Source: Marsupella aquatica
Taxonomy: Eukaryota > Plantae > Marchantiophyta
NCBI GenBank assembly: GCA_973895155.1
Contig: OZ316899.1
Coordinates: forward strand, 16,209,974-16,273,973
DNA: 64,000 nucleotides
Direction of reading: 5' to 3'
Both the position numbers and the translations under genes were made by a program. Each line of letters starts with the position of its first letter. The first letter of the stretch is position 1. Positions 11,314-63,022 of this stretch are shown here, piece by piece. The notes under the pieces were generated by a model. The model searched no databases. It saw only the letters and a list, made by a program, of their open reading frames with translations, and was not told where the DNA came from.

Positions 11314-13537
11314 TCCTCCCCCTGTAAACCTGAGCAGCCTCCGGTCTGCTCCAATCGATCAGATTTCCTCTAAGTTTGAGTCCAAACTTGACCCATGCGC
11401 CTAGACCACTTCCTCCTGTGGTGCGTCCCATGGCTCCCTAAACCCAAGAAACCCCCCAGCTCAAGCTGATTCCCGCAGGTTTCGCGCTTGGCGAGGCCGT
11501 TTCCGCGGCTTAGCGGCATGGGACGTTGCTAACCTTCTACTATTACTATTAAGATTTTACACACATATACTGGACAGATCCTTCATCGGGTCATGAGATA
11601 CGTAGCCGGCCTAATCTAGGCCTTCCCTCGTCTTCCCCTCCGTCTTGTTAGGTATGTTTGGATTCCGCCGCCGGAATGATCCCCAATAGGCTTGGTTAAG
11701 CCGCTAAGACCTCTCTCAGCTCGACACATCCAACTCTCACCCCCCTGCTTACTTTCCTTCCTTCTGGTTGATGTGGGCACTCTTCACACAAGTTAATGCG
11801 ACACACAAATAGCAAAATGACTCATTCTGACTGAGTCATACCATGCACTTGCCATACAAATAGTACATCTCATACACAAGCTCTGCGAACTAAGCCGTGA
11901 GGCCAACTCTATTCAGCTCTTAGGCATGAGGAAACATGAATATACACAAGGGTCTGTATGACTAACCGAGAGCTTCTCTTACTACTTGATCCCAGCCCGG
12001 CTGGTGCAAACTAAAAACTTGCTAAAGAAGAGGCCCTGAGCTCCCCGCTGCCCAGGTACTTATCCTGGTAGTGGATCCGCCTAATTCTTTGCAGCGTAAG
12101 CCTAATCTACCTAACAATAATCTACTTGCCCGGATCTACCTATGTACAGCAAGGCAGGAGCACAAGTGTTGCTCCTACCAGTGGAACCGCAATCCCACTA
12201 AGCTAAGTGTCAGGGCCGCTCCTGGTCCTGATCCTAATCCTAAACTTGGAGATCAGCGCCCGCCCTGCCCACTCACGCCTCCTCCCTCCATGTCCGCCCT
12301 TCCTAAAAGGAACGACGCCCTTGCACCGTCACGACACCGGTGGTGGATCCTCAATGGACACCCCCAACGCTTCCTCCTCAGCCACTGTCGTAGGTTCGTT
12401 TTCTGACAGATTACCTGCCCTTGACTGAGTCAACTCTCCATCGGCCTGACTGGGTCCACCATCGGCGTCGGCATCGGCTCAAGAATCATTCTCGGCTACG
12501 GCCTCAGCCTCGGCTATGGTCTCCCCGGCCTGCTCAAGAGGCGGATCTGGGATACCGGCCTCATTACTGAGTAGTTCGGCTTGGGCCGCACCACCCCCAC
12601 CTGTGATGATAGCGGGATCTATTGCCGTATTCATGCCGGAGGATGGTGCTGGGTCTACCTCCTTGGTCACCACGGCTTGTGGAGTCGGATTACTCCTTGA
12701 CCTTGAAGGTTTCCACTTCTTCTTCTTTTCTGGTTCGGCAGCTGGTCCCTTCCCCTTCCCACTTACTTCCGGCATTGGTGCAGGTGGCGCGGCTTTTTCT
12801 TCGGCCAGTACCACTCCTGGTAACTTGGTTGCCCCAATTGGAGTTGGGCCTGATGAAGACAAGCACTTAAATACTGCGGCTTGTTTCTTCAGCCGCTCCG
12901 TTTGGTTGTCGGCCCGCCGTTGGAGGTTCTCCATCTTCCTCGTGATTTCCTCCAACTCCTCCTGGGTCTCATCCAGGTCCTTGCGCGCCTCCTCTAGTTC
13001 CTTCTGGGCTTCCTCCCGTTCTTTTTTCAAGGTAGTCCTCTCCTCCCGGGTTGCTCTTAGCTCCTTGTCGAGCTCTGCAATGATGACAGACTCCATCTGG
13101 TTCATCTTGGCGTAAGTCTGATCGAGCATCTCGTCCTTCTCCCTTAGGTCGGCCTTGAAGCTGGCCGTCAGGGACGCAAGCTCCTGCTGCAGCGCCATAA
13201 TCCCTTGATAGGATTTTCCTAACTCGGCCTCCTTCTGCTCAAGGGCTTCGCGAATTTTCTTGAGCTCCCCCTTCAACGCCCATTCCTTTCTTTGGGTCTC
13301 CGCCATGGCCCGGCTGTTGGCTGTTATGTGGGCCTCCTCTGTATTCCTCAGCTCTCGCTTCCACTTCTCCCTCTCTTTGATCGTATCGGCCAACTCTCCC
13401 TGTGTCTGAGTCAGTTTATCCTTGATATTCTGATTATCAGCCTGCGCGGTGTCCAACTACCCCTGCATGATGTTCAGCTCATGCCGTTTAATCCGCAGTT
13501 CATCTTGGGCTTTCTTGGCCGCCCTTAGATCTTCAAT

Positions 13538-14925
13538 TGTCGTATAGTGCTAAGTATCAAAAGTGACTCTCCTCACCTAAAACCAGGGTTTCGATCCCTT
13601 TAAGAACAGATTTCAGAATGAATTGTATAACTTTTATCACTCCGAGTGATTTAGAGTCTTGAGCTCTATGTTGACTTCACTTCTCAATAAAAAAAATCGA
13701 ATAAACAAACAACAAAGTAACTGAACTTCTGATTTATGAATTAGAGAAGAAATGAGTAAGGATTTAGAGACTACAAGCTACTGCCACTCCTTCAGAAAGG
13801 ATTTGGGCTCAGTATAGACATGAAATCTATCTCATAATTCATCCATCTCACTCTTCAAAACACAAAGGTTAATGATAATGGAATTCTCAATCTGATGAAG
13901 CAGAAGCTTTCTGATTGCAAATGAATGATATGATTTAAAATGCCGTCAACATGGTTTGACATCAGCGATACGCAATTCAGTCAAACTCTAAACCATATTC
14001 CAGAATCAAAGCAACAGTACTAACTACTCTGAGAATCAGAATTTACTTCTCATTTATCATTAACTATTCTTGAATTGGCTAGCGAATCCCGACTCTGCAA
14101 GCAAGCCTAGCAGTGAATTCAATACGAGTTTCAGAATTCTGCAACTGAATTCAATCACCACAGGAATCTCTTGAATTCAATCTTAACTTCAATCAATATA
14201 GCTTTACTTCCATACAAAACACTCACAGCATGCCTTGTTACAATGGAAGGAGGAGAAAACTATTCAGAAGACTCAATTCTGAATACAGTATTAACTCTAT
14301 TTCTCTCTACTTCAAATGAGCATTCTACTCTGTCTTATAAGTGCTGGAATCCTAAAATGGAGGAGGTAAGAACAGTCGTGCCTTTCCAAGCTTAAAACTA
14401 AACAAGGGAGAAGCACAGCATAAGTACTTCAACAAGGGTGGTAGAATACTACTTTACTAGTAATCTACTTCAAAAACTAAGTGTTGAGCGGACGCTGCTA
14501 GAAGCGTCGGGAGAATCTGGACGCTGCTAGAAGCGTCTTAAGTAAAACCAACGGACGCTGCTCACACTGCTCACAGCGTCAATACTAGGGTGGACGCTGC
14601 TCACAGCGTCGTGTGTTGAAGCTGACGCTTTCCACAGCGTCGGTCGAAATCCTCATAGAGTCTTGGTGGCGGTCGGGCACTGCCAAAAGCGTCATGAGGA
14701 GGTTGGACGCTTCCGCAGCGTCTTGAGTAAAAGAAACGGGCGCTGGTCACAGCGTCGGGCAAAGTACACTAGGAATCGTCAGGAAAGCCGGAGATGTCAA
14801 ATATTTCTATAAGTGTCCAGAACAAGTAAATGTTGGCCGGAAGGTGTCTAAAGTGTAAGTAAATCTTGTGATATGCTAAAAATAAACAAGTTTCCAGAAA
14901 AAATTGCAGGGACACCCATACCACA
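13538..14925. mobile_element. Solo LTR D (1388 bp) nested in C copy 1
   Basis: TGTCGTAT...ATACCACA termini. Perfect TSD TCAAT at 13533-13537 and 14926-14930. Absent from C copy 2. Confidence 0.88.
14491..14756. repeat. Array of 8 palindromic GACGCT-N5/6-AGCGTC units with variable spacers
   Basis: Units start at about 14491, 14520, 14554, 14593, 14624, 14676, 14706 and 14739. Confidence 0.85.
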
Positions 14926-17481
14926 TCAATCTCGGCTTCCATCCTCCTAAGCCGCCGAATGACCTCGTCCTTCTTGCTTCTCTCTAAAGCCACCGCTTCT
15001 TCTAATTGGTGCTTCTCCAACTGCTCCCTATGGAAAAAGGGTCCTACCTCCACTCCTCTCCAAAGATGCCGAGCGCAAGTTCCCCACACATCTCACCATA
15101 CTCCATGGCTCTATTCTTAGCGTAGGTGGAGTAAGTAGAAGTGATCGGCATCGCCCATCGCGGCCTCTGCTCCCAAGCCGTCTTGCGGATCTCTTCAATC
15201 GTGGCTAGAGGTTTGCTTCCTTTTTCGGCTAGCCGCCTGATGTCCTCCGGCCAATCTCCTCCTGGTAAATCCTTTTCCCTAGCCAGGGCTGCCTCCTCTT
15301 CCTGCCTGATTCACTCCTGAAATTCCTGCGCCGTCTGTTTTATGCCGTCAAAGCTCGGGGGAGCAACATCTGGCGGGGGAGACTCAGGGCTACTCTGCTG
15401 GTTGGGGTCCCCTCGTACTACCCTTGGAAGTGTGGGGACAAACCGGCCACAGGTCCTTACTCTGGAACGTGATGGTCCGACCCATAGCCGGAGTTATCAT
15501 GGCTGCAGTCCTCCACTGCCTCCTCTATTTCTTGGACGTCCGACTTCTCCCTCTCCTCTTCGTCGGTAGGAGCTTCAGGCAATTCTACCTCAGATTCAGA
15601 GCTTGAGACTCCCACATACATTCGAACACCTGGCTTGGATTCCGGCCTGATTCTCTCCTCGTCTCCAACAAAGGGGTTTTCTCTTGTGAGCCGGTGTAGG
15701 CCTACCTCTGGAGTGGTGTTCTGCATTGTTGCCGTTGCCGTTGTCGTTGCCGATGCCGATCTCTTTTCTTTCTCCAGTAGTTTCAGCAGACTCTGCATGC
15801 CTGGTTGCTGCATCGGCAAGTCCTCCTTCCTGGGCCTAAACACCTGCTCGATCGTAGGGCTAACAGGTGGTTGAGGCTTCTCTGCTACCGGCCTCGGTTC
15901 TGGAGCTTCCTCGGGTGCCCTTACCTGCAGGGGAAGTACTGGGGCAAAAGTCTGACCTCTGGCATACCGGCACAACAGCGGCATGTGATAGCCAAGCCGC
16001 GACACGCTCCCCATGCCGATTACCTGCTGCTCCTCCTTTAAGATCTTCTTCAATTGGTTGAGGAGGTACCCGTTGTAGTCCCGGCTTGGGTCTGGCCTCT
16101 CTGCCAGATAGACCTGTGCCTTGCCGATCTCCGCCCTCGGCAAGTTACAATGCATGGTCACCCGCAAGAAGTCGATCATCTCTCCTATGTGCGGGTTGGT
16201 GCATGTGTTCCGGAAGAAGCCATTCTTCGTTGATGGCCCGGGGAACGACCGGAACTCCTTGTCAGGCAAGGTCTTCCTGGTATCAACTTTGGTCTTATTG
16301 CCTATCGGCAAGCCAAACACTTCGGCAATCACTTTGGGAGTAAGATAGAAATCCTTCCCATATATCCTCGTGCAATTGGTCTCGAGTTCCCATGACCCCA
16401 CGAATTCTAATAGGTCTGACTCCGGTACCTCCGGCTTCAGCCATGGTAATCTTACAAAGGCCTCTAAGCCGGATCCGGCCATGAAGCCTTGGTACTTCTT
16501 GGTCTGCATGGCCGTAAAGCATGCATCCTCCTCCCGTGCAAAATGTAGTTGCACCTCTACCGGTAGGGTTGCCGCCCAGCCCTTCCAGGTGTCATCCCTG
16601 GTTGGAATGGCCTTGATGGGATCAACCTCCTCCTCTTCGGCTTCTCCTTGCCTCCTGCTCTGCTGCTCGGCTGGCTTCTTTGGTGCCGCCGACCTCGTTC
16701 TTTTTGCCGGGGTGGCTTCATCGTTGACGGCTCCCTTCCTCTTCATCTCTGCTGCCGTGGAGGTTTCTCCTAGCACTGTTGCCTGGGTCCACCTTTCCGT
16801 GCTACCCTTCAATTCCCAGTGTATGTCGTTGCAGTTCTTGATGGCCTCTCGAATGCCGACGATGCTGTCTTTGCAAAATAGAAGATCATCGAGCTGATTG
16901 GAAGTAGGAGTCCACAAGAACTCGTCTTTGATGAGTTCGCCTCCTAAGAAAGCCGTCTTCTACAGCTCGCACAATCGAGCGAGCTCCTGCCGTTCTCGAG
17001 CTGCCCTTTCTGATTCCTCGTCCTCGTAAGTCTTGATGTACTCAGTTGCCCGTTCGAACAGGCATCCCCAAAAATGTGCCGCTTGATTGACGTTGCTCAT
17101 ACCCTCCTTAGGTCGATCGTCAGTATCTACTCTCTCCCCGAGTGCTTGCCTAAGCAGCTGACAGTAGTTGGCCTCCCGTAGTCGTCTGCCTAGTTCATGC
17201 TTGCAAATGAGCCACCATCTCCTGCAAGCGCTCCTTACCCCTCTCCTCTTCAGGTCCTTCCTCCCGTTGATCCTTCCTAGCCGCCGACGCTTAACGCGCC
17301 CTAACCCTAATCGAGTTTTCACCCCCAGCGTCCTTACCTCCAGCCTCGGCCCGGGTTCCATGGTTGCCCCTAATTGTTTATATTTTCCTTGTTTTGTCCC
17401 TATACTAAGGTGTTTCTAGGGTGCCTTCCTGCTTTACCCACTTAACTGGCCGAGTGATTCCTGTCTAGGCATCACACCTCC

Positions 17482-23022: not shown

Positions 23023-23674
23023 ACGCCTACTATGCGCGATAGGATCCGGGTTGGAGACTAGATGTTTAGGGACCAAAGTTGGTCTGGGGGTGGCAGGTTT
23101 CCAGAAGCATATATGAGGGGAGTGGTGTCTCCCTGGAGGCCAAGGGCGAGCCGAAGTCGTGAGCCACGGCGGTCGCAACACTAAGGGAAAGCGCCAAATG
23201 GAAATGACGATATCTTCCCAACGGGAAGTCCGTTGGAGGACTTCTTGGGTGCGTTGGGAAGCTCTTGAGGAGGGCTACGTCTTCCTGAGCTAAGATGGTT
23301 CTAGGGGTGTGATGCTGCCGGTATGGTGGGTAATGAGTGATTTGGCCTAACGACGCTTAGCACGCGCGTTAGGGGTATCTTAGGCCATAATTATTAGCAT
23401 AACGATAGTATTTAGGTAGCCATTATGAGTAGGAAATCATTAGTCAATAAGGGGCGTTCGTGTTTGGGCTGGCGGCGGGTCGCCATTCGCACGCTCGGGT
23501 TGTGAGCGTGTAATGGGCCCTCACCTTTCCCCCTCGGGACTGTATAACAAACTTCGGGAGGCGGCCACTGACACGAGCTGACCCGGACCAGCGGAGTGGC
23601 CAGTACACTGCAAGCGTGAAAGGCTCGGCCTATAAGCAACGAGGAGGTGTTGGGCGATCGATGAGCTTCCAGGG

Positions 23675-23682
23675 TATAAAAA
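23675..23682 (+). promoter_or_regulatory. TATA box about 106 nt upstream of family E ORF1
   Basis: GGGTATAAAAAGG, conserved in sequence and spacing in G (63474-63480, 107 nt upstream of its ATG). Confidence 0.6.
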
Positions 23683-25831
23683 GGGGACCGATCCTTTGCA
23701 GTGCACCAGTTCTTCAGTCCACGCGCCAACTTTGACCCTAGTTCTCTCGCTTATCCTTAGTCACCTTCTATCTCCTCTAAATGTCACACACAATCCTTTC
23801 CAGTTCGGCCATACAATTCTGGACGCAGTTCCTATCTATTGGAGGGCACTTGGCCGACTCATTGAAACACGCCAACCCACGCCGATACAAAATTGAACGC
23901 GAATACGAGAGAGCCATCAGCCTAGCAGGCCTCCACTACTATCTCCTTAACTTTGATTACCCGTCCCAAAGCAAGCTTTACTGACCCAAAGAGATATCAG
24001 GGTACTTCTTCAACGGAGGCAAATATATCGGCTTCTAGGAGGTATTGCTTTGGCTTCTGGACGAGGTCTTCAATATCTTGGGCACGATCAACTTACCGCT
24101 CTTCAATATCCCATTACCCCTATTCAGGCGGCCCAGAGGAGCAAACACTTAGGGAGCCGGGACTACATCGCCCCCTCCCCAGGCCCGGACCCGAGTAGCG
24201 GTTCCAGCGGACAACATGGTGACCGTAGCCGCCCCGGCCCCAATACTAACGGTGGTGGCACTACCTATACCCGATTGAGAGGATGGGGAGGTGTCACCCT
24301 CCCCGAGCTAGTCTCGGGGAAAGAAGAGGAAGGAACCCGCAGCTGTATCCGGGTTACCCATGGCCACGGTAGTCGCGGCCAAGTTGACAATGCACCGCAT
24401 GGGGGAGAACATGCATAAGAACATCCTCCACCCCAAACATGCGGTGTACTTGAAGACTCAGAGTTTCGAGCACCTTGCCTCTCTCCCCTGAAACACTTGC
24501 AGGTACTACGGGGAGGACATGACGGAGTTTGTCAAGAATTATGATGATGTCCGTCAGCATACTTGGCTGCGGGGGAGGAATATGTCCCTCATAGAAGAGC
24601 GGCTCAGGATGATCTTCGGGCTACCCGAGGGTGATCACCGGGTCAGATCATGGGCTCCCGGGGGCAAAGGAGCCAAGTACCAATTGTGAGATAAGGATGT
24701 TTATGAAAGAAGGGTTAACTAACCATAAATTTTAGAATTTTTACGTTTAAGATCTCAAATGAGGCTGAAGAGGGACCTGAAGACTACTTTGAAGTGGTAT
24801 GAGACTTTCAAGCCCATCTGAGGTCAACCCGGATTGATATTAGAGAAGGAGGATCGACCTGGAACTTTTTACTATAAGCCGTGATGAGATATAAAAGCTT
24901 ATACCGTGACTCTACTGAACAACAGCTGTCCATTGCCAAAGTTTTTAAAACCATAACTCAAACACAGGCACGACCACAGCAAAATCCGGATATAAGGAAG
25001 GAGAGTCGATCCGGCCTCTCACACCTCTCAAAGCCAAACTTAGTAGGTTTTGAGCTCCCGAGCGCATTAGGCTATTTAAGCAGTAGAGTGAGGAGGCTCT
25101 ACCCTTTTGGTAGAGGATCTTGGGTCCGGATTATAGGACCAATCTTGCATTGCATGATGAGAGCCTGGATATGAGGGTACTGACTGATTCGTTGTGAGGG
25201 GAATGCCTACTCCACCGTTGGAAGTGAAGACAGGAAGTTTAAGATCCTGATTGTGGATACATCGGTTGTGAGAAGGGAGGCCAGGTCGACCCGGATATTT
25301 CTACCAGTGGTCGACACCGAAGAGATTGAACATTCTAAAGCCGCATCATTGTAGAGCTCGCCATAGAGGAGCCAGACCATTTACCAAAAATCAATTTGCT
25401 ACTTCCAGAAATCCTATGGAGCAAGGGGCGGATCCAGCCGGAATGTCCACTTCTCGCGTTTCTAAGGGGCATTCAACCTCAACATCACCTGCACCCACTC
25501 CGGTTAAAGCCCCTGTGAGACGATCAAAGAGAAAGGAGGTCCCCATTGCCATGAAAATTATGAGGCCAGCTATTCCGGACAGTGAAGCTGAGAAGGTCAA
25601 ATTGAGGGAGTCTTTGCTCAGGATGGGCTGTGAGTCTCTGATGGAGCTACCCTGGAGTTATCAAAGCGAAGATATGATCAGAGAGATCTAATCCAAGGAG
25701 TGTCCGGCTGAGTTTAAGGATACCTCCAGAGGCCGACCTGAGCGATGGACTCAGATGATGGTTGCAGGAGCTTTTGTATTGGAAGATGAAGGAGAAGGTC
25801 CAGTGGGGAGAGCTGTAAATCTAATCCTTCC

Positions 25832-28800
25832 TGTGGTGCGTCCCATGGCTCCCTAAACCCCAGAAACCCCCTTCACAAGCCGATTCCCGCAGGTTTCGCG
25901 CTTGGCGAGGCCGTTTTCGCGGCTTAGTGGCATGGGACGCTGCTAACCTCCGTCTACTACTACTATTAACATTTTACACACATATACTGGACAAATCCTT
26001 CATCGGGTCATGAGATACGTAGCCGGCCTAATCTAGGCCTTCCCTTGTCTTCCCCTCCTTCTTGTTAGGTATTTGGATTCCGCCGCCGGAATGATCCCCA
26101 ATAGGCTTAGTTAAGCCGCTAAGACCTCTCTCAGCTCGACACATCCAACTCTCACTCCCTTGCTTACTTTCCTTCATCTATTAGTTGATGTGGGCACTCT
26201 TCACACAAGTTAATGCGACACACAAATAGCAAAATGACTCCTTCTGACTGAGTCATACCATGCACTTGCCATACAAACAGTACATCTCATACACAAGCTC
26301 TGCGAACTAAGCCGTGAGGCCAACTCTATTCAGCTCTTAGGCATGAGGAAACATGAATATACACAAGGGTCATTGTATGACTAACCGAGAGCTTCTCTTA
26401 CTACTTGATCCCAGCCCGGCTGGTGCAACTAAAAACTTGCTAAAGAAGAGGCCCTGAGCTCCCCGCTGCCCAGGTACTTATCCTGGTAGTGGATCCGCCT
26501 AATTCTTTGCAGCGTAAACCTAATCTACCTAACTGAATCTACCTATGTATAGCGAGGCAGGAGTACAAGTGTTGCTCTTACCAGTGGAACCGCAATCCCA
26601 CTAAGCTAAGTGTCAGGGCCGCCTCCTGGTCCTGATCCTAATCCTAAACTTAGAGATCTGAGCCCGCCCTGCCCACTCACGCCTCCTCCCTCCATGTCCG
26701 CCCTCCTTGAAAGGAGCGGCCCTCCACCACCGTCATGGCAGCGGTGTCTGTCCCTCAGTGGACGCCCCCAATGCTTCCTCCTCAGCCACTGCCGTAGGTT
26801 CGTTCTCTGACAGATTACCTGTCCTTGACTGAGTCAACTCTCCATCGGCCTGACTGGGTCCACCCCCGGCATCGGCTACAGTATCGGCTTCAACATCAGC
26901 CTCGGCTACGGCCTCCCCTGCACACTTAAGTGGCAGATTGGGTACCTCGGCTTTACCGAGTATCCTGGCCTTGGCTTTGTCATCCCCTTCTAAGGTAGTT
27001 GGATCCTCTACCGTAATCCTGCCTGAGGTCGGTGCTGGGTTTACCTCCATGGTCACCACGGCCTGTGGAGCCGTATTACTCCTTAACCTTGAAGGTTTCC
27101 GTTTCTTCTTCTTTTCTGGTTTGGCAGCTGGCCCCTTCCCCTTCTCACTTACTTCCAGCACTGGTGCAAATGGCGCGGTTTGTCCTTCGGCCAGTACCAC
27201 TCCTGGTAACTTAGTGGCCTCAATTTGAGTTGGCCTTGATGAAGCCAAGCACTTAAATACTGCGACTTGTTTCTTCAGTCGCTCCGTTTGGTTGTCGGCT
27301 CGTCGTTGTAAGTTCTCTAGCTTCCGCGTGCTTTCCTCCAACTCCTCCTGCACTTCGTCCAGGTCCTTGCGCGCCTCCTCTAGCTCCTTCTGGGCTTCCT
27401 CCAATTCCTTTTTAAACGCAGCTCTCTCCTCCTGGGTCGCTCTTAACTCCTTGTCGAGCTTTGCAATGATGACAGACTCCATCTGGTTCATCTTGGCGTA
27501 AGTCTGATCGAGCATATTGTCCTTCTCACGCAGGTCGGCTTTGAAGCTGGCCGTCAGGGACGCAAGCTCCTGCTGCAGCGCAATAATCCCTTGATAGGAT
27601 TTCCCTAACTCGGCCTCCTTCTCAAGGGCTCCGTGGATAACCTCGAGCTCCCCCTTCAATGCCCTTTCCCTTCTCTGGGTCTCCGCCATGGCCCGGTTGT
27701 TGGCCGTTATGTGGGCCTCCTCTGCATCCCTCAGCTCTCGCTTCCACTTCTCCCGCTCCTTGATTGCATCGGCCAACTCTCCTTGGGTTCGAGTCAGTTT
27801 ATTCTCGATAATCCGATTATCAGACTATGCGGTATCCAATTGGCCCTGCATGATATTTAGCTCATGCCGCTTAATCCGCAGCTCATCTTGGGCTTTCTTG
27901 GCCGCCCCCAGGTCTTTGATTTCGGCTTCTCTTGCCCTAAGCCGACGGATGACCTCGTCCTTCTTGCTTCTTTCCAAAGCCACCGCTTCTTCTAATTGGC
28001 GCTTCTCCAACATCTCCCTCTGGAAAAGGGTCCTTGCTCCAACTCCTCCCCAAAGATGCTGAGCGCCAGCTCTCCAGACATTTCCCCGCACTCCATGGCT
28101 CTATCCTTAGCATAGGTGGAGTAACTAGAAGTCATTGGCATCAACCACCGCGGCCTCTGCTCCCAAGCCGTCTTGCGGATTTCTTCTACGGTGGCAAGAG
28201 GGTTGCTTTGTTTTTCTGCAAGCCGCCTGATGTCCTCTGGCCATTCTCCTCCTGGTAAATCCTTTTCCCTAGCCAGGGCTGCCTCCTCTTCCTCCCTGAT
28301 TCGCTCCTGAAATTCCTGCGCCGTCTGTTTTATGCCATCAAAGCTCGGGGGAGCGACATCTGGTGGGGGAGACTCGGGGCTGCTTTGCTGGCTTGGGTCT
28401 CCTCGAACTACTCTTGGGAGCGTGGGGATGAACCGGCCACAGGTCCTTACTCCTGGAACATGATGATCCGACCCGTAGCCGGAGTCATCATTGCTGTAGT
28501 CCTCTACCGCCTCCTCCTCGGCTTGGACTACCGGCTTCTCCCGCTGTTCTCCTGGTTTTCTTGTGAACACGGCTTCACCTCTCACCGGTCTTGGTTCCTC
28601 CTCCGGCTTCCGTGTTGATCTCTTGTTCTCCTTGTCGTGGCTGGGAGCTACAACCTGCTTTTCCTCGGCTTCGGGACTTGAGGCTCCTACATACATCCGG
28701 ACTCCCGGCTTGTGTTCCGGCCTCCCTCTCTCCTTGACTCTAGTAAAGGGGTTTTCCCTTGTAAGCCGGCTTCTAGGGCAGCGTCCTGTATCGGTGCCGG

Positions 28801-30541
28801 TTCTGTTCCCGTTGCCGGAACCGTTCTCCTTTCCTTCTCCAGCAATTTCAGCAGATTCTGCATGCCTGGTTGCTGCATCGGCAAGTCTTCTTTCCTTGGT
28901 CTAAACACCTGCTCGATCGTCGGACTGTCGGGCTGGTTGGGCTTCTCTAGTGCCGGCCTCTGCTCCGGGACCTCCTCCGGTGCTCTTGTCGATAGGGGAA
29001 GTACTGGGGCAAAGATTTGACTTCTGGCATACCGGCACAACAGCGGCATGTGATAGCCAAGCCGGGACACGCTTCCCACGCTGATCACCTGCTGTTCCTC
29101 CTTCAAGATCTTCTTCAGTTGGTTGAGGAGGTACCCATTGTAATCCCAGCTTGGGTCTGGCCTTTCTGCCAGGTAGACCTGAGCCTTGCCAATCTCTGCC
29201 CTCGGCAAGTTACAGTGCATGGTCACCCGCAAAAAATCAATCATCTCTCCGATGTGCGGGTTGGTGCAGGTGTTCCGGAAGAAGCCATTCTTTGTTGATG
29301 GTCCTGGGAACGACCGAAACTCCTTGTCAGGTAAGGTCTTCCTGGTATCAACCTTGGTCTTATTACCCATCGGCAAGCCAAACACTTCAGCAATCACCCG
29401 GGGAGTGAGATAGAAATCCTTCCCATACACCCTCGTGGAATTGGTCTTGGGTTCCCATGATCCCACGAATTCTAACAAGTCTGAGTCCGGCACCTCCGGC
29501 TTCAGCCATGGTAATCTTACAAAGGCTTCCAAGCCGGATCCGGCCATGAAGCCTTGGTACTTCTTGGTCTGCATGGCTGTAAAGCATGCATCCTCCTCCC
29601 GTGCAAAGTGTAATTGCACTTCCTCCGGTAGGGTCGCCGCCCAGCCTTTCCAAGTGTCATCGTTTGTTGGAATGGTATTGATGGGGTCAACCTCCTCCTC
29701 CTCGGCTTCTCTTTGCCTCCTGCTCTATTGTTCTACTGGCTTCTTTGGTGCCACCGACCGCGTTCTTTTTGCCGGGGTGGCCTCTTCGTTGTTGTTCCCC
29801 TTCCTCTTCATCTCGGCTGTCGTGGATGTCTCTCCTAGCACGGTTGCCTTTGTCCACCCCTCCGTGCTACCCTTCAACTCCCAGTGTATGTCGTTGCAGC
29901 GTTTGATGGCTTCTCGGATGCCGATGACTCTGTCTTCGCAAAACAGCAGGTCGTCTAGCTCGTTGCCAGTAGGCGTCCATAGGAATTCAGCCTTGATGAG
30001 TTCTCCTCCTAAGAAGGCAGCTTTCTGCAGCTCCCACAATCGGGCGAGCTCCAGCCGTTCTCGAGCTGCTCTCTCTGATTCTGCGTCCTCGTAAGTCCCA
30101 ATGTACTCAGTTGCCCGTTCGAACAGGCATCCCAAAAAATGTGCCGCTTGATTGACGTTGCTCATACCCTTCTCGAGTTGATAGTCGGTATCTGTTCCCA
30201 CGCTGAGCGCTTGCCTAAGTAGTTGACAGTAGTTGGCCGCCCGTAGTCGCCTGCTCAGTTCGTGCTTGCAAATGAGCTACTATTCCTCGCGAGCGGTCCT
30301 TACCCCTCTCCTCCTCTGGTTCTCCCTCCCGTTGGTTACCCCTAGCCGCCGGCACTTAGCGTGCCCTAACCCTAATCGTGTTCTCTCCCCTGGCGTCCTT
30401 ACTTCCAGCCTCGGCTCGGGTTCCATAGTCACCCTTAATTGTTTATATTTTCCTTATTTATGTAACTATACTAAGGTGTTTCTAGGGTACACTTCCCTTT
30501 TCCCCTTAAACTAGCCCAGTGATTCCTGGCTAGGCATCACA
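25832..30541 (-). mobile_element. Giant ORF-bearing solo-LTR-like unit, family C copy 2 (4710 bp)
   Basis: TGTGGTGC...GCATCACA. Perfect TSD CTTCC at 25827-25831 and 30542-30546. It interrupts the F ORF. Confidence 0.92.
26733..30426 (-). pseudogene. Family C ORF, copy 2 (PMD-like plus coiled coil), disrupted
   Basis: ORF pieces 29725-30201, 28687-29619, 27992-28696, 27825-28091 and 26733-27776 tile one ~3.7-kb ancestral frame. Confidence 0.78.
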
Positions 30542-32693
30542 CTTCCTTACTTCAAAGGAGCCATCAACAGTAAGGACGGGTTCAGTGTTTCTAAGTGTTT
30601 GGATCCTCATTTGAAACGAGTCTTTAGCTTCCTGCTACCCCTGCTATATCCTGAGAAGCCACAAAGAGTTACTGTTGGAGTTGGCTCTACCATTGTTGCT
30701 GCTTACAAGGGAGAAAGAAAAGTCAACTGGGCTAAGCTTATCTTTGATTTGAAAAGGAAGTTGGTACAGAACCTGTCCAATAAGAGTCCTACTCCCCTCT
30801 CCTGCTACGTGGTACATCTATATAGCTTTGAAGGAGTCTTGTTCAGAGAGGAGAAGAAATTACTATTGGCCAAGTTCAACTTCATAAAATATGGAGAGGC
30901 AGATCCAGATATCACCCAGGCCACCTCTGATGACAGTGAGGATGAGGAACCAGCAGAGACAAATCCTCGAAAGACCCGGTCTGCTGCCCGGAACCTTGAC
31001 CCGGACTTTGTCGACCCGGCTGAATTTCTGGATGCACCCGGCCATGCCTCCCTAGACACCCTAGCTGATTTCCAGATCATCTCAGACACATTCCAGAAGG
31101 TGAAGAAGAAGACCACTGTGATGGAGAAGGCCATCATTGACATTTCTCAGAAGTTAGGAGTGAAACCAGGGCAGATTCTTGAAAAGATCTCCACCATGAG
31201 TGATGTCACAGATAAGAGGAAGTTGGAGAAGGAGAATGAGTTCCTCAAGAAGAAGGTATCTGAACTCAAACAGCAGTTGGAAAGGAGTAAAAAGAAGAAT
31301 GAGCTTGAGCATACTCTCCAACTCAGTATCACTCAATCTTTGGATCTGATTGAGCCTTTGACTAAGATAGCTTCTCTGGATCTTCTTAAGGCCCAAATTT
31401 ATGATGAGTATTTGGCCAAGAACACCACACCCATCCTTTTCTCCAAGATTAACCATGTAGTGGTAGATGTGAGTGCCAAGGTGGATGATGCACTTACGGG
31501 TCTCTCAAAGACCTGTGAAGCCTTAAGGGAGATGAGTGACTTGACTACAAAGGAGCTATTAGCTGATACTGAGATTCCTGCCTTTACTACCAGATCTTTC
31601 TCTCCTAGTCCTCATGAAGGAGTCTATTCCACTGGCCCCTCATCACCCCTCAACCCTCCTGGTTTCCTCACTCCCAGTACACACTTCCACTCCCATTCTT
31701 ACACTTATTCTCATGACCCAAGTGCCCATCAGGAGAACATGGATATTGACCCATCCATCCCTTTTACCACTGGCCAGCAGGGGGTTTTCCTTCGACCAGA
31801 ACCCCTTGCCATGGCTAACCCTGAGGAGGTTCCTTCCCAAACGCTAGGACCAGAATAGAGTTATATTTAGAGAGTTAGAGCCACATTAGTTTAGACTTAG
31901 AAATAGCTATATAGACTAGTATATGAGTAAGTAGACTCCAGTATTTTGTTGGTGTATCCATTGGAGACTCTACTCCATTTTTGACTAGGATAGTTCACTT
32001 TTATTTACATATTTCTTTAGACTTGGGTTTTGAAGAGGCATGTCTTTTCATAATCTCCACTTTTAGTACAAAAGGAGGAGAACCCAAAGTCAACCCCGGG
32101 AGAGAGAGATGCATTTGATTTCCCCATTTTGATTTTGGAGAAATCTATGTCTTTTCTTCCCTTCTTTTTACCATGGTTAAGTAAAGAGAAGTTTCAAGAT
32201 TAGCAACCCTTTGAGTTGTTGTGCAATATTCAATGAATACTAGCGTGTGTCTATGATGATATTGGAAGATCAGCAAGGTCTGTGACCAATTCATATAGAA
32301 GATTCACCAAAGAGAAATTGGAATTTACGTGAAACTCAAATAAGCAATCTTAAGGATAGTAGGAGAAGTAAACCAATTCGAGTATCCTAGTACCGTCTTA
32401 AGCAAGACCAGAAAAGTGTCCCGGGTTGATTTACATTGTTGTCTTCTAAATTCAAGAGATGGAGAAGAGTTGCTATGAGAAATCAAAAAGCATATACAAT
32501 GTTGATTTCCGAATCTTAAATTAGGCCATAATCCTTATTGAAGGAGTGGTGATGGTCGGAATTCAATTTCCTTGCGCTTTGAAACCTCCTACCTACTCTC
32601 TCTAGTTTCAATCTTTGTTAATTCTAGTCTTTATTATTGCACTATGAATCCTAAGGATTATCCACTTGAGTTTGTGGTTAAATACTTATGTTA

Positions 32694-33333
32694 AGGCCTC
32701 ATTCACAATTGGAGGACCCAAAAGGAACGTCACACTCAAAAGTGACCATAGTTTATTATGCTTTAGGATATCATTTTTAGGGTGTAATGAGATGATATAG
32801 AAAATTTGATGTACTATACTTAACAAACATCCTATAGGTTGGTAACATTCATTAAACTATCTAGCATTTGAGACTTTGAAGCTTTCCTTATATGTCCTTC
32901 AAAGATTGATAAAAGGACTTGTCACGCAGCGGGTCACATCATTTCATGACTCAAAAGGACTCTAAAAAATGCATTTTAGACAATAAAATTTTACCAAAGC
33001 ATGCATACTAATAGCATAATCTTATATTTCAAAACTTAAATAGTGACACACACTAAACCTTTATGTACAGGACAAAAATAATCAATAATTTTGGCCTATT
33101 TAGGGCCATCAATAACAGGATCCCTTAAAACATTTGAAAACTTGATGTATCTACATGGTGAGGTAGGTTACACCATGTAAAATAGTCTTGTGAAAAAATT
33201 AGACTTAAATGTCTTGAGATAAAATCATGATGAACCTTTTTCCATGTTACGAAAGTCATTTTTCACTAAAAAAGCATGTTTTTGAGTCTTGAAAGTGGTT
33301 CCTGCGAGGTACACCCAATTGTGAATGAGGCCA
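32694..33333. mobile_element. PIF/Harbinger (Tourist-like) MITE
   Basis: Perfect 18-bp TIR GGCCTCATTCACAATTGG / CCAATTGTGAATGAGGCC, TTA on both sides, AT-rich non-coding interior. Confidence 0.85.
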
Positions 33334-36300
33334 TTAGAAATCTCTCCAACCTAAGAATGTTGGTGTAAACTTCTCAAATTGTGTTAATTCAGTCTTTTCG
33401 ATCTTATCCACTCCTAACGTGAATGAAATTGAGTTATTAAGGAGTAAATAGTCATTTATCTCTTTATCACCTTTCTACACCAATCCTTAAGTTTTCCCTC
33501 CAAGGGGTCAGTGGACAACGGGTTCATGATGAGGACCTGCCTCATCCCCGAAATAGCCAAACGGCTGAAGTTCCAGAGGTACGCCCTCCACATGATGGAA
33601 CCCCGAGGCGAGATCTTTGCTGCCTAGGTTATCCAGGTCGAGAACTATCGACCTAGGAAATGGGCGTCGTACTTCGCTAAGAAGTTCCATGAAGAGATGG
33701 AGCGGCAAAGGAAGGCGCTATACATCGGCAGGAAGGCGTATTTTGCAAGCCACATCGAGATCATTCTTGAGTGGTACGCCCGGTTTGATCGACGAACCCT
33801 TCCCCGGGTCAATGTAACTAAGTTGGTCCCAGCTAGGTGGGTCTTCCCGGCCCTGGATAGACGGCCCCAACCCGAGGCCCAAAGTTTGGCGGCCATGCAG
33901 GCCTCATCCACCCACCTCCACAAGTAGCCATAGCCGTAGCCGTGGCCGAAGTGGTACCAGACGAGGCAATAATCGTGACCTTAGACGCGATCAACCAAGC
34001 CGGGCCGAGAGCAGAAGTCAAAGCGGTAGAAGACTTGGCTGAGCCCGAGGGTCTAGAAGACCCACCGGTGGCTATTCCGGAGGACAGGACAATGATGGAG
34101 GAAGACACTCCAGCCCCTTCCAACCCTACATCCCTAGGGCTGGATGTCACTACCCTGGCCCCCACGCGAGTTAACGTCTGCTCGTGCCCAAATCCGGACG
34201 GGCACAAACTGGACCACCCGGAACTCTTTGTACCGAGTACATTTCTGAACGGGCTTTTGGGAGATTTTTCCCAATAGATTGCCCGGGATATCGGGGAGTT
34301 CATGGCCCGGAAGGTAGCCTACTTCTTCAATCAGGAGTTGGTTACCGCAGTAAAGGCAGGTCGAGCCCAGTCGGAGGCCTCTCAGAGGATAGAGCGGTAC
34401 CGGGTTGAGTCCGTGTACCTAAAGGACAAAGTTGCGGCTCAAGAGGCTGAGCTTCTGCAACTACGACCCAAGGTTGCAGCCGCTGATGAGTTGTTAGCAA
34501 ATGCGCATGCCCTAGCCGAACAGGTGCAAAGCTGGGAAGGAGGCTAAGATTGCACGGCTCTGGACCCAAGTTGACAGTTTAAAGAACCAAACTGTCATCT
34601 AGCAGAAAGACCTAGAGGAGGCCGAAGAGCGGGCCCAACGTGACATTGCGGAGATTGCCACCCTACAGACCGAAGTGGCACAGCTTCAAGCCAAAGCCGA
34701 GAAACAGACCCGGGTGGTGGACAAGCTGACGAGCAATGCCCAGTAACTGGAAGAGGCATGCCAGGAGGCAGTTGAGGAGACGGACACGGCAAAGTGAGAG
34801 AACAAATCTCTGCTAGACCAAGTCCAGCTCCTCAAGACGGACAACGACAAACTCCGTAGGCAGCGGGATGGCCGCTCCCACTTGGACGGCTCTGGCAAGC
34901 GCACCAGGCATTAGCGGAGGGTTAGGCTTAAAATAGAACTAGGAGTAGCTAAAACAGGCTGTTAGGACAAGCGCTGGCCAGAAGATAGCGGTGCTGACAC
35001 ATTAGCCAACCTATGTAGAATAAGTTAGACTAATAGGACAAGCCGTAACTAGCTTAGCGAGGATATAAGTTAGCGTAGATTCGGGCATGAGGCCAGACTG
35101 GTCCTCAGCCCTTAGTATTTAGCAGCCCCCCGGTAGAGGCAAGGGGGGATTTTAGACTCAGAATTTGGCCATTCGCGGTACGCGTGGGGAGTCCCGAACT
35201 CGGTGAAGTACCGGAGTGCCAAGGGGAGGGTATACGACTAAGGGTGGTATCTACGATTTTGATATCATCATGGGTTCAGATTTCCATCGGGGTTTTTCTC
35301 TAGGTTCTTCCTGTTGAGGGAGATGATACTACATTGCGCGGAACTTGGTAAACCCGCATCACTCCTTCCGGGAGGCTCTGTGGTAATGCGGAGTAACGCA
35401 ATGCGGGTAGAGGACAGCTCAAAAAGCAAAAACCCGTCTGTAATTGATGGGAGAGGATCTTGTGATCTACACCGAAAGCTTGGTTGACACCGGATATCTT
35501 GCCAGTGCTTGAGATTTCCACACTTTGAGTGCCGTAATATATTACTAATGCGCCCAAGTATTTGGCCATCCCGGACTTTGCGTGTAAGTGCTTGTTGGGC
35601 GAGTGCGGAGCCGGGCTCCGTTGTAGTGTATACTCCTCGGCCTTGGGCCCGTTTGTTCACGAGGTGTCGGGTCAACCAATCGTAAGTGTATGATCATAAA
35701 TGAATGAAATCCTTTCCCCTCAATTCCTTCGTGTAAATCAAGATTTATGTTTATGTGTAAATGCATGTATGAGTCTCGTGTGCAAGTACCAATGTCGGGC
35801 CGAACACGTATGCCAATCATGCACGGGGTGAAAGTTACGGATACGGGGTTGCAAGCCGGGGTTGAGCACTTGTACTAATGGATCCGGATCAAAGGCGGTA
35901 ACACAAAGGCTTAGAAGTCCGTAAGCCGGGTTGACCCCGTGTCGACTAAGGTACGTTCCGGCGGCAGAACACAAACTATACCTAGGAGGTGTCTGTACAT
36001 AACAGTAAGCGCACTTAGCACTAGTTTACGTGAGTTAGGAGCATTCCGTGCGTCCCTCCCTGCTTGAACCCTCATATTTACGAAGGATATGCCTGTCTAA
36101 GCCAAAGCCCGGGTTAAGGCCTAGGCTGACAACGTGACAGGGGGTGCCATGGGTTCTCGAGGTTTGAGGGTGTTAGCTCGCCCGCTTGCCAAATCTTGTC
36201 AAACAACAGCCAAGCCGTGTTCAGTATCCCAAGGGAACTGGCGTTGGGGAGGCAAGGCCAAGTAGGCATGGAGGTTGAGTTCCAAGGGTGCTTTCCCCTA

Positions 36301-38048: not shown

Positions 38049-38059
38049 TTTTTTTTTTA

Positions 38060-38549
38060 AATTATTTTCCAATGGGTCGAAACTCTTTGACAAATAGTGA
38101 TTGAAGGTATGCCAGATGGCTTGATCTTCCACATTCAATGCTCTGTACCAAGGCCTAGCCTCACCGTTGAACAGACCGTGAAGAATTTGCATCTTGATGG
38201 CTGATTCTCCATTTGCTGCAGCGGTTCCCTCGAAGTCATCCAACCATTCGTCCGGATCCTCATCTCCTCTTCCATGGAATGCCTTGTAATGAATGCGCGA
38301 CCGTTGGCTCAGTCTGGTTCTTGGCCTCTCTTTTGGCCGTGCCTCCGGTTCCCCCATGTTGGTTGGGGACTTACTTTGCCTTACCGACTCTTCTTCTAGT
38401 ATTTCTTCTTCGACGCCACTTTCAGTTACGGAGCTACTAGCTCTTTTTGCCCCTCTCAGTCACTGTGTATTATGCCACCTGGCAAGATGCTGCAGACGAG
38501 CTCTCTCCCGTTGAATTGCTCTTTCCTCCCTCGGCGTAGGTTCAGTCAT
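38060..38549 (-). pseudogene. Truncated gag of the (Tat-like) Gypsy element that owns family C LTRs
   Basis: FHGRGDEDPDEWLDDFEGTAAANGE...LFNGEARPWY (retrotransposon Gag capsid-like), directly downstream of the PBS and the C-type LTR. Confidence 0.8.
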
Positions 38550-38596: not shown

Positions 38597-38614
38597 CCCC
38601 TCCATCTAGCGCCA
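38597..38614 (-). promoter_or_regulatory. Primer binding site (tRNA-Asn type)
   Basis: TGGCGCTAGATGGAGGG after ...CACCACA-TTTT. One mismatch to the complement of the plant tRNA-Asn 3' end as recalled (TGGCGCTAGAAGGAGGG). Confidence 0.75.
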
Positions 38615-38618
38615 AAAA

Positions 38619-39609
38619 TGTGGTGCGTCCCATGGCTCCCTAAACCCAAGAAACCCCCTGCACAAGCCAATTCCCGCAGGTTTTGCTCTTGGCGAGGCCG
38701 GTTCCGCGGCTTAGCGGCATGGGACGCTGCTATCTCTCTTCTACTAACATTTTACACACATGTACTGGACAGATCCTTCATCGGGTCATGAGATCGTAGC
38801 CGGCCTATTCTATGCCTTCCCTTGTCTTCCCCTCCTTATCTTCTTTAGGTATGTTTGGATTCCGCCGCCGGAATGATCCCCAACTGGCTTGGGTTAGCCG
38901 CTAAGACCTCTCTCAGCTCAACACATCCAACTCTTACTACCTTGCTTACTTCCTTCTCTCTTGTTGATGTGGGCAATCTTGAAACAAGTTAATGCGACAC
39001 ACAAATAGCAAAATGACTCCTTCTGATTGAGTTATACCATGCACTTGCCATACAAACAATACTTCTCATACACAAGATATGCGAACTAAGCCGTGAGGCC
39101 AACTCTATTCATCTCTTAGGCATGAGGAAACATGAATATACAGAAGGGTCACTGTATAACTAACCAAGAGCTTCTTTTACTACTTGATCCTAGCCCTGCT
39201 GGTGCACTAAAAACTTGCTAAAGAAGAAGACCCTGAACTCCCCGCTGCCCAGGTACTTATCCTGGCAGTGGATCCGCCTAATTCCTTGCAACGTAAGCCT
39301 AATCTACCTATGTATAGCGAGGCAAGAGCACAAGTGTTGCTCTTACCAGCGGATCCGCAATCCCACTAATCTAAATGTCAGGGCCGCCTCCTGGTCCTGA
39401 TCCTAATCCTAATCCTAAACTTGGAGATTTGAGCCCGCCTTGCCCACTCACGCCTCCTACCTCCATGTCCGCCCTTTTTAAAAGGGACGGTGCCCTTACA
39501 CTATCACGACACCAGTGGCTGGTCCTCAATGGATGCCCCCGATCCTTCCTCGGCGGTCAATGTGGGCCTCCCATTCTCTGACCGGTTATCTGCTCCTGAC
39601 CTGGTCAAC
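38619..39609 (-). repeat. 3' part of a family C LTR in 5'-LTR position (truncated)
   Basis: Homologous to 11417-12440 and 25832-26840, including the C-terminal tail of the C ORF. Abuts PBS and gag. Confidence 0.85.
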
Positions 39610-41982
39610 CCTTTTTTGGTGTGTCCGGGTCCCACGGACATCAGTTATGATTGACAGGTCAAGAAAACAGGCATTGATCTATTTCTTTTGTATTTTCATG
39701 GCGGGACAGTTTTTTTCGGGGGGGGGGGGGGGCGCATGAAACACTATGTAGCCGCTTCTTATTAACAGCCTTCTTATTCGTTCCAATGTCCACACACAGA
39801 ATGGAGCCGTGTGCACCTGATGATGGCGTCCTTCAGAAAGGTTTGTCTTCATACAAACTTGTTCGACAATTATAGCCTGCGAGTGGTAGCTGCAGAACCC
39901 CATGACAAATTTAAACTTCATTCTCGCACTTGAATTCTACTAAGTCTTGTTCCTGGACAGCTTGGTCATTGCCAACTGCCTTCTCAGCTGGTATTTGTCC
40001 AGTACATCACCTTCTCATTTCAGAATCGCTTAAAGACGTTACCAGCATCACAGAATGGACCTCTAAACAGATGATTGGAGACGAAGACACTGGAATGCCA
40101 ACAACGGCCAACACATCCTTTAGCCAAAAGCCATTCAACATCATACACAACAAACAACAACACAGCAGGACTAACAAACAGGAATGGCCCCTGGCGGTAC
40201 TCATTCAGGACGAAAAGTGAGGTTGGATTAACAAACCGGAATGCCCCCACTGCCGCCCCGAAACCGGATATACAAATGATTGATTAAAACCGAAAGCTCC
40301 CCTTGCGCAACACAAACAATTTGAAAAGGCATCGAGAATGATAGGGACACCCGAAAGTGTCATAGTGCCGACAACCTTAAACCCTTCAAACACATGTAAG
40401 ACATAATTCATAGTGTCTTCATTTGTAAACACTTCCAAGCATATGGCCATTGTAATTTTGGGAGTCAATTTCTTGTTGGAGATAGTTCTCATCCCTCTAG
40501 TTCCTTGCAAGGGCTTCCAGCCGACTCAGCTCTGGCATCTTGTGAATTGATATTTGTAACATACACACTGAGTCCCAATTAATGCTTAGCAACATCCAGA
40601 CTGGAATACCAACATGGAAAAAGTTCCACTGCCATTATTTCCCAACAAGACACATTTTTTTGAATGTAGCCTCTACAGTCAAAAGCTGAACCTCTGTGTA
40701 GAATTATGGAACGCATCAAACGGACAAGAGACAGCCAGCTTAAGTTCCGATAATTGATTGTGAGCATCTGAGGTGACTTATTCGAACCTAATGGGACAAG
40801 TATGAGGTCGACCGAAAATCTGATGGTTTCGATACTTTATTTGCAGATAACAGGATTGCAGCACGAAATCTATCAAACCCAACGAGCCATGAAGAGCTAC
40901 TGATTTGTTATTTTTTTCTCAAATCTCTGTTAAGTATTCAACTAAAGTGGGAACAATCCGTTTATGCAATTCCGTGAAAATCTTCTCTGGAAAACATTGG
41001 AAACAAATCCAACATGTCGAGAGGCGTCACGGGACTAATGAAACGTGAACAAGCAGGATGGCATTAAACAATCCGAGCACTCTCTCTTCTCTTTCTTTTC
41101 TCAGGGCAGCGGTAAGATGTGACCTGCAATCAAGCATGAAGTGGGCCTTCTGACGTGACATCCCTGAGAGAATGCCATCACGAAGCATGTCCCTGCTAAA
41201 TATATTAAAAAAAGCAGACTGATGTAGGGTTTTAATGGGAAGCTATGATGGTGAGTACAGAAACTTGTTCTTGTATCAAAAGTAACGACAATAGAGCCGA
41301 CATGGCACCCCATTAAGAAATGGAGAGAGGCAGACCACTGACAGGAAGACCGTTCAGAGCGACCAGGTCATTCAAGCAAACCTGAAGTAGAAAACAGAAG
41401 GTGTAGAGCAGAAATAATACCTTACATGCTCAAATGAACTACTTGACGAGTCCCAAAAAAGGACGCCGGTTTCTGAGAACTAAAGCAGCCGTCAATCTTG
41501 GTATGTTTCCCAAGGTGACTTGGAGGTCCTAAAAAATCACTCTGGCAGGATACTTGGGCGCTGTCGGACAACAACTTTAAAAGCATTCTTGAACAATCCT
41601 ACAAATCAGTGAAATGGGAAATTTGCGTACGAGTTCGAGAAACCATAATGTAATTTTCTTTACTCTGCTCCTCAAGACTAACTGCTTTTTAGAACGCACC
41701 TGCGCAACTAACAAGCTGACCAAGCCAGCTTATCAGCGCTTTAAATTTCTTCCTCTTCCAGATGGATAACGACAGAGGATCTGGCTCTCACTCTAAAGTA
41801 AAACATTCACAACACCCGCAGTCTGATAGAGTGCACTGACAAAGTGTCGACTGTCACCATACTGTTGACTGCCGAGAAACATTTTGGGAGCGATGCATGT
41901 GCATGACACTACAGTGCTAGAGGTTTTCTCCCTATGTGGGTCGAGGCACCCTGTTCAACTTAGCAGCCAGCGTTGAAATGAT

Positions 41983-62400: not shown

Positions 62401-62932
62401 GGAGAGCGGCGAGGTGTTCGAACCCTTGGGTCTTTAGGTAAGCTGCATGCTTTGGGTGGAGGATGTTCTTGTGGACATTCTCCCCCATGCAATGCATGGT
62501 CAACTTGGCCACTGGTAAGCCGGATACTGTAGCCGGCTCCTTCCTCTTCCTTCCCCGCGATTGGTTCCCGGGATGGCTTGTAGAAGGGGACATCTCCCCA
62601 TCTCCCCTATCCGGCAGGGGTAGTGCTACTACCGTTAGAACTGGTGCCGGCACCGCAACCATCACCGTATTGTCCCCCAAGGCCGCCCCTTGGGTTTGGG
62701 CTTGTGCGGGCGGTGATGTATTACCCATCCCATTTTGGTGCGTCCCTAGTGGCCTCCGGACAAGGGGTGGATGAGCCTCCTCATCTTCTGCGCTTAGATT
62801 TACCGCGTTCACCACGGATTGTACCCGAGCGAGCGGTGCAACCGGTGGTGGGGAACGGCTTGATGGAGGCCGAGGCGGTGTTTGTGTCGGTGTTGGCGAG
62901 TTGGCTACAAGTGTAGCCGGAGGGGGCGCCAT
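59450..62932 (-). pseudogene. G ORF2 (Pro-rich N-terminus, PMD-like LPW domain, coiled coil), frameshifted and split by a B solo LTR
   Basis: 62024-62995 contains YLKTQGFEHLAALPW...LKLIFGL. 59791-60177 contains CPCPNP.GH...MARKVAYFF, matching E. Confidence 0.7.
60183..61585 (+). mobile_element. Solo LTR of family B nested in G
   Basis: AGTCGCG...CACCACT. AAGGG on the left and A+AAGGG on the right. Colinear with 4118-5583. Confidence 0.88.
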
Positions 62933-63022
62933 AGAACCCAAAAGTTTGGATGGGAAGCCGAGCGATGCTAGAATTGAAAACCCGCCCGGAATCAAACTGC
63001 CAAACCAATAGTCAAGGAAGGA

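Follow-up and report, generated by a model that had tools for sequence, protein, structure and literature searches.

The window analysed here is a stretch of 64,000 nucleotides from contig OZ316899.1 of the liverwort Marsupella aquatica (positions 16,209,974 to 16,273,973 of the forward strand). It contains two complete copies (C1 and C2) of a repeated unit of about 4.7 kb that begins with TG, ends with CA, and resembles a solo long terminal repeat (LTR) filled for most of its length by one long open reading frame (ORF). A third, truncated copy (C3) and two further families of units built in the same way (D and E) lie in the same window (Table 1), and the C units are read on the minus strand. 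The evidence given below suggests that the unit is probably a giant protein-coding LTR of a Gypsy lineage, and that its ORF encoded a coiled-coil accessory protein with a VANC/PMD-type fold that likely binds DNA.

Table 1. Features of the units C, D and E, in positions of the window (TSD, target-site duplication; PBS, primer-binding site; NLS, nuclear localization signal)
Feature	Position	Strand	Remarks
C1, complete unit	11417..17476	-	TSD CCTCC; 87% identical to C2; inserted close to a Gypsy element's integrase end
Nested solo LTR, unrelated, in the C1 ORF	13538..14925	.	1388 bp; TSD TCAAT
D2, second copy of family D	23308..36139	+	Flanks AGGGG/GGGGG (4/5); net ~4.0 kb; ~70% identical to D1; interrupted by E
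E, third family	24685..33479	+	TG...CA; TSD CCAAT; net ~4.1 kb; distant ORF homology; interrupted by C2
C2, complete solo-LTR-like unit	25832..30541	-	4710 bp; TG...CA; TSD CTTCC; sits in the ORF of unit E
Conserved non-coding 3' part of C2	25832..26732	-	Likely R-U5 (repeat and unique 5' regions)
Short hairpin-like element near the 3' end	26066..26093	-	Common to C1, C2, C3 and D1; looser in D2
Accessory ORF from second ATG	26733..30165	-	~1144 codons; four frame pieces 30276-29728, 29724-28690, 28900-27995, 27824-26736
E/K/R/L-rich predicted coiled coil, then basic KKKKRK cluster	27200..27824	-	Cluster putatively NLS-like; only sub-cutoff coiled-coil Pfam matches
Globular core domain	28990..29688	-	Predicted VANC21-like (DUF1985/PMD-type) fold
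TATA-like box	30442..30447	-	Candidate ORF promoter; at +95 here and in C1
Gag-like N-terminus of the C3 parent	38052..38357	-	Retrotrans_gag E 0.011; cut by another element at ~38050
PBS-like site	38598..38614	-	4 bases past the C3 end
C3, 3' 1.03 kb of the unit	38619..39645	-	~45 ORF-tail codons; truncated inside the ORF
D1, second family	58620..63839	-	TG...CA; TSD CCAAC; net ~3.8 kb; homologous ORF

The TG...CA ends and perfect 5-bp TSDs that the original prediction had assigned to C1 and C2 were confirmed. The ends form a terminal inverted repeat matching at 7 of 8 positions, and the homology between the two copies breaks off exactly there. C1 spans 6060 bp because of the solo LTR nested within it (net ~4667 bp), and it is 87.2% identical to C2 over 4616 aligned bases. 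Patterns of TG...CA plus TSD are not rare in themselves (9 in the window versus 1-8 in each of 20 shuffles), and the C units were accepted as real because their ends coincide with the repeat boundaries and because the empty site of C2 was found, not because of the pattern alone. Public contigs join position 25826 to 30542 and skip 4715 bases (4710 + 5); this joint was present in three of four public sequencing runs from two studies, one run of which may be the window's own source. The ends of C2 were also found joined to other places within the unit, with at least five such joints to 25832 (among 15 of 104 rows listed) and at least one from 30541 (among 12 of 47 rows listed). Contig depth gave no copy number and was left unused (core and 3' 0.9 kb were similar in runs X2 and X3, and the core was higher in X1 and lower in X4). 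As also predicted, no internal LTR pair was found within the C units, and Pfam matches to gag, reverse transcriptase (RT) or integrase were lacking in six of six ORF pieces. The solo LTR nested in C1 is AT-rich and represents a further family with one copy in the window.

The ORF comprises 1231 codons from the first ATG (78% of the unit) and 1144 from the second, at 30165 (73%). Since the stretch between the two shows no frame-specific signal (0.57 vs 0.53 and 0.76) and C1 and C2 have both preserved the TATA-like box at +95, the gene likely starts at the second ATG. These figures correct the earlier statement that about 80% of the unit is one ancestral ORF, and stops and frameshifts break the frame in both copies. 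The ratio of nonsynonymous to synonymous change (dN/dS), obtained by counting substitutions in the observed frames of C1 and C2, was 0.17 in the N-terminal part, 0.10 in the core, 0.23 in the linker, 0.19 in the acidic part, 0.31 in the coiled coil, and 0.8 in the tail; in shifted frames, the first five segments gave 1.06-1.77. The ORF was under purifying selection. C1 and C2 differ at 41 of 893 bases (4.6%) in the 3' non-coding 0.9 kb and at 482 of 3348 (14.4%) in the ORF, and the synonymous divergence of the ORF (dS 0.28-0.73) lies far above that of the 3' part. The low divergence of the 3' part set against the high dS indicates that decay after insertion was small and that selection acted while the family replicated, from which period most of the synonymous change would date. 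On the sense strand, A/G differences between C1 and C2 (274) were twice as numerous as C/T differences (137); this strand is purine-rich, and composition may explain part of the excess.

The junction that would connect the unit to a retrotransposon is preserved in C3, where the 3' end of the unit is followed by 4 bases, a PBS-like site, a leader, and a gag-like frame, and where ~45 codons of the ORF tail are kept in frame. The PBS-like site is presumably of the tRNA-Asn type. A spacing of 0-5 bases, which includes that of C3, is used for PBS calls (PMC6317226), and tRNA-Asn is listed among the Athila and TatII PBS types (PMC6317226 supplementary table). A truncated copy at 38619-39609 that abuts a PBS and gag and includes the ORF tail had been predicted; the junction and the tail were retained, whereas the end was moved to ~39645 and the gag match was found to fall below the cut-off. 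C3 thus shows that the PBS-adjacent repeat includes coding sequence, while in C1 and C2 the same 3' end belongs with a TG start that lies 4.7 kb upstream. The first 31 bp of C3 were initially considered a foreign LTR head; this was rejected, the stretch being diverged ORF tail. C3 is truncated by a segment of 19 kb with lower G+C (39646-58500), in which no Pfam match above the curated cut-off was obtained from the 33 ORFs scanned; the window lacks the remainder of C3. No tRNA genes were found in the window, and literature searches with the C3 PBS motif returned unrelated papers only.

Families D and E are built in this way too, their ORFs being homologous to that of C, which supports the placement of an accessory gene in the LTR. 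The units are nested, with C2 in E and E in D2, and the site of E is empty in D1. Both ends of D1 recur in D2 at ~70% identity, and the terminal inverted repeat of D1 matches at 6 of 8 positions. The D1 ORF was aligned with the C core by tblastn (E 3e-11), and a profile built from 24 homologues from outside the window (alignment A1 minus its 3 window rows) matched both halves of D1 and D2 (independent E values, 1e-11 to 2e-18) as well as E (7e-4), with no match on the reversed window. For the part of E after C2, hhalign gave a probability of 64.5 (E 6e-5). In total, the window holds five complete solo-like units of three families (C, D and E; 3.8-4.7 kb) and zero full-length element, which fits the known link between long LTRs and solo-LTR formation, the ratio of solo to intact copies rising with LTR length (PMC7497039). 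The hairpin-like element (26066-26093, 58776-58806 and ~35950) is found close to the 3' end in both C and D, two families with otherwise unalignable DNA, and is possibly a packaging or 3'-end signal. The E-in-D2 and C2-in-E insertions hit the homologous core domain within ~2-3 codons of the same place (profile positions ~122-124); the six C-into-C joints listed miss these positions, so the shared insertion point may be due to chance.

The length of C3 (just ~1.03 kb), the TG near its upstream break, and the drop in C1-C2 divergence from 14% to 4.6% right after the ORF stop could also be explained by a parent with ordinary ~1-kb LTRs that start in the ORF tail, in a nef-like overlap, with the ORF between pol and the 3' LTR. 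Sense ORFs commonly have this position (PMC7264820), and the 4.7-kb units would then be deletion products or mis-primed non-autonomous derivatives. Such a parent is considered improbable: the TG of C3 lies in ORF-tail sequence common to C1 and C2, neither of which has a purine tract before it at that position (the host element B, described below, has one before its 3' LTR), independent TSDs flank the TG...CA ends of all five units (three families), none of which has an internal repeat pair, and both ends are common to D1 and D2 despite their divergence.

A full HMMER scan of 1.84 billion representative proteins yielded 19 hits, one of which (P0017) was excluded from the alignment as a repeat-type match. 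Of the ten looked up, three (CAM6122807.1, CAM6090539.1 and CAM6082161.1) come from the liverwort Calypogeia fissa, where they are NCBI gene models; word-index protein searches with the C core, the E ORF and longer forms gave no match. The predicted product begins with a helical N-terminus and a VANC-like core, which are followed by an acidic linker, a segment resembling a coiled coil, and a basic cluster. A membrane helix was not detected (highest 19-residue hydropathy 0.35-0.87 in six of six pieces), and the protein is therefore not env-like. Modelling of the N-terminal 146 residues from a single sequence was poor (predicted local distance difference test, pLDDT, 48.5), and the core, modelled with AlphaFold2 from a 27-row alignment, reached a pLDDT of 80.9 and a predicted template modelling score of 0.80. 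The top row of the Foldseek search with this model was VANC21 of Arabidopsis VANDAL21 (PDB 9LNJ/9LNK; template modelling score 0.49, the next 0.14-0.16 and all others <=0.18). Among 48,161 PDB chains, VANC21 was the only match with Z >= 5 (Z 8.9, root-mean-square deviation 4.2, 211 of the 233 core residues aligned; next Z 2.3), and realignment to the core model gave Z 9.1. An Atlas search pointed weakly to DUF1985 and PMD clusters (0.84) and was treated as a lead only. PDB sequence searches gave no match, and none was obtained at E <= 0.001 when the core model was compared with a viral fold library.

VANC21, encoded by a Mutator-like element, counteracts silencing and binds DNA in a sequence-specific manner, and its targets form motif arrays (PMC5735166). 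The PMD resembles the DUF1985 domain of VANC (10.1101/2024.09.27.615353; PMC13547354), and PMD-A clades are encoded by Gypsy elements (PMC5418596). The C ORF product is like VANC21 in its predicted fold over 211 residues, in being a transposon-encoded accessory protein, and in having a coiled coil. The two differ in that the host of VANC21 is a Mutator-like DNA transposon, whereas the C ORF lies in an LTR-like unit, shares 8-11% identity with it, and has neither a DUF1985 Pfam match nor detected motif arrays. The PMD-A of Gypsy elements and the PMD-C of the host proteins MAIN/MAIL1 likely belong to the same fold superfamily as the C core; PMD-A and PMD-C were surveyed in angiosperms (PMC5418596; 10.1101/2024.09.27.615353), whereas the C core has no Pfam PMD match and its named homologues are from a liverwort.

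That the closest solved fold of the ORF product belongs to a DNA transposon, that both unit ends serve as insertion termini, and that five complete units occur with no full-length parent in 64 kb would also agree with a non-autonomous DNA element of the Ginger type, which would have TG...CA ends, depend on a Gypsy-like integrase in trans, and carry anti-silencing cargo as in VANDAL, with C3 beside a PBS by chance or through recombination. Ginger elements have longer terminal inverted repeats and their own Gypsy-like integrase. In the units described here the inverted repeats are just 8 bp long, an integrase was not found, and the end of C3 lies 4 bases from a PBS-like site that is followed by a gag-like frame; an element of this type is accordingly held to be very improbable. 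No transposase was found in the unit either, and TG...CA ends with a 5-bp TSD are unlike those of a Mutator-like (VANDAL) element.

Within an LTR, the ORF could occupy either of two places. Upstream of the ORF, each of the three families has a TATA-type box (+95 in both C1 and C2, +360 and +368 in D, +206 in E), and a second box after the ORF is weak, as would be expected if the ORF lay in a very long R (or U5) and one promoter at the LTR start produced both a short LTR-contained mRNA and a read-through genomic RNA. From the established mechanism of reverse transcription, an R plus U5 of 4 kb would need very long strong-stop DNA, and the short conserved 3' part and the shared hairpin resemble an ordinary R-U5; this arrangement is therefore rather unlikely, if still a serious one. 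The short conserved 3' part slightly favours a position of the ORF in the unique 3' region (U3).

The protein itself is probably a DNA-binding regulator of some kind, as judged from the predicted model. A part in anti-silencing is tentatively proposed as its single most likely role: the only solved structure that it matches is that of a DNA-bound, sequence-specific anti-silencing protein, aligned over nearly the whole core (211/233 residues), and VANC21 too has a predicted coiled-coil oligomer region (PMC13547354). It is quite conceivable, if short of probable, that the LTR layout is correct and the protein is instead a PMD-fold coiled-coil accessory factor that serves in transcription, in the export of RNA or in tethering to integration sites. 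Among the proteins with a PMD fold are host factors that were first described in silencing (PMC5418596), most extra ORFs of retrotransposons have no known function (PMC6317226, PMC11963269), and no motif arrays were found. A GATTAGG-type motif was enriched relative to the rest of the window and not relative to shuffles, and was dropped. One 4-copy hexamer array is present in C3.

Several observations weigh against the proposed giant protein-coding LTR. Neither a parent with two whole LTRs nor a polypurine tract before the unit start was seen in the 64-kb window or in searches of metagenome and viral contigs. No match was found when metagenome contigs were scanned for the junction of the C3 end and the PBS or when viral contigs were scanned for the shared hairpin, and a protein-based search of viral contigs for the core or gag gave no locus. 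(A protein-based search of metagenomes gave one locus among 293 candidate stretches, which by eye is a bacterial shikimate-pathway-like gene and was rejected as a false match.) The identification as an LTR depends on a single truncated copy, C3, whose gag-like frame matches Pfam below the curated cut-off (E 0.011-0.019) and whose pol is missing from the window, so that the lineage is not fixed; C3 is 87% identical to C2, and its ORF tail is more diverged (51 of 148 differences). The inverted-repeat match of E is poor, the part of E before C2 was only weakly aligned by hhalign (probability 2.7, E 0.017), and the second TATA-like site, after the ORF, is matched in C2 and C3 and not in C1. All five ORFs in the window (C1, C2, D1, D2 and E) are broken, and the complete gene cassettes that had been expected to remain after recombination are decayed here, not intact. 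On the protein side, the VANC21 match has a Foldseek E of 0.66 and an identity of 8-11%, Z values below ~13 in helical folds may reflect a common arrangement according to the tool's own warning, and DUF1985 or PMD was matched in none of 16 proteins at E <= 1 (for DUF1985, also in none of six ORF pieces at E <= 0.05). A fold held in common does not establish a function. No repeated target-like 6- or 7-mer in the six units was clearly above shuffles (one of 12 motif tests reached 4/100 shuffles, uncorrected). This lack of motif arrays, the low identity to VANC21 and the use of the fold by host chromatin factors speak against an anti-silencing part.

In mouse mammary tumour virus (MMTV) sag and human immunodeficiency virus (HIV) nef, a sense protein-coding frame of a few hundred codons lies in or overlaps retroviral LTRs of ~1 kb or less. 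The C ORF is similar in its sense frame in an LTR, and differs in its size (~1150 codons in a 4.7-kb unit), its unrelated protein, and its putative position in U3. The plant non-chromovirus Ty3/gypsy OTA elements (Athila, Tat, Ogre, Retand) are alike in TG...CA ends, 5-bp TSDs, and LTRs of up to ~5 kb (PMC6317226), PMD-bearing extra ORFs occur in 57% of Ogre elements (PMC6317226), and Tat elements occur in liverworts (PMC10508981, PMC13468544). The extra ORFs of OTA elements are described as internal, up- or downstream of gag-pol (PMC6317226), whereas the sense ORF of C fills 73-78% of an LTR-like unit and stays in solo copies. The rice ORF0 elements Retrosat2, RIRE3 and RIRE8, to which C is likened by description only, have LTRs of >3 kb, an extra sense ORF, and many solo LTRs, but their ORF0 lies upstream of gag-pol and not in the LTR (PMC3485330). 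More generally, the extra ORFs of plant Gypsy elements are placed in the internal region (PMC7264820, PMC6317226, PMC11963269, PMC3485330). The literature searched, in which most subscription papers were not included, yielded no account of a plant LTR with a long conserved ORF within it, and the extra-ORF lists of PMC6317226 might hide some cases. Extra ORFs in plant Gypsy elements and LTRs of up to ~5 kb are thus known; the ORF-in-LTR pattern in three families, with D and E, and the VANC-like fold go beyond the original prediction. Its central proposal, an accessory gene in a giant LTR that is left behind in solo LTRs, gained support from the empty site, the PBS junction with the ORF tail, the selection on the ORF, and families D and E, but the parent with two 4.7-kb LTRs was not seen.

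A giant protein-coding LTR would likely have arisen from an accessory gene in sense orientation that had a promoter of its own and was at first located between pol and the 3' LTR; when the plus-strand priming site shifted upstream, the gene would have become part of U3. The 5' end of the unit would then correspond to the start of the 3' LTR, so that two copies of the gene would be present in a full element. Recombination between the two LTRs, favoured by their length, would leave the promoter, the ORF and the 3' end as a solo cassette. The product may be a nuclear oligomer that binds to DNA and works in trans on its own family to protect it from silencing.

Other elements were also noted in the window. 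Host Gypsy element B (10485-23022), into which C1 is inserted, has 829-bp LTRs that are 95.8% identical, each with a 37-bp tandem repeat, a different PBS, and gag-protease-RNase H-integrase pieces, with no RT match among the ORFs scanned. A family of 1.4-kb LTRs (4118-5583 and 60183-61585) starts with AGT and ends with ACT in place of TG...CA; a perfect 5-bp TSD (TCATT) surrounds the first copy, the flanks of the second are imperfect, and related internal pieces near 37325-38050 appear chromodomain-like by eye.

In plants, LTRs are regarded as non-coding and their solo forms as dead ends. If a gene of 3-3.5 kb is kept inside the LTR by three diverged families, solo LTRs would be gene cassettes, and annotation pipelines may call such ORFs host or orphan genes (cf. 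the three Calypogeia fissa gene models). The VANC-like fold suggests a function, one that can be put to the test, for retrotransposon extra ORFs, a class with an as yet unexplained role, and it bears on whether PMD/VANC domains originated in the host or in retrotransposons. It is a speculative and rather doubtful extension that a liverwort Gypsy clade has made its LTR a self-contained anti-silencing gene, so that solo LTRs scatter cassettes that reactivate the family in trans. If this is true, solo-LTR formation, normally the host's route to disabling such elements, would spread reactivating cassettes, and counter-defence of the VANC/PMD type would extend back to retrotransposons of bryophytes, well past the Mutator elements of eudicots in which it was discovered.

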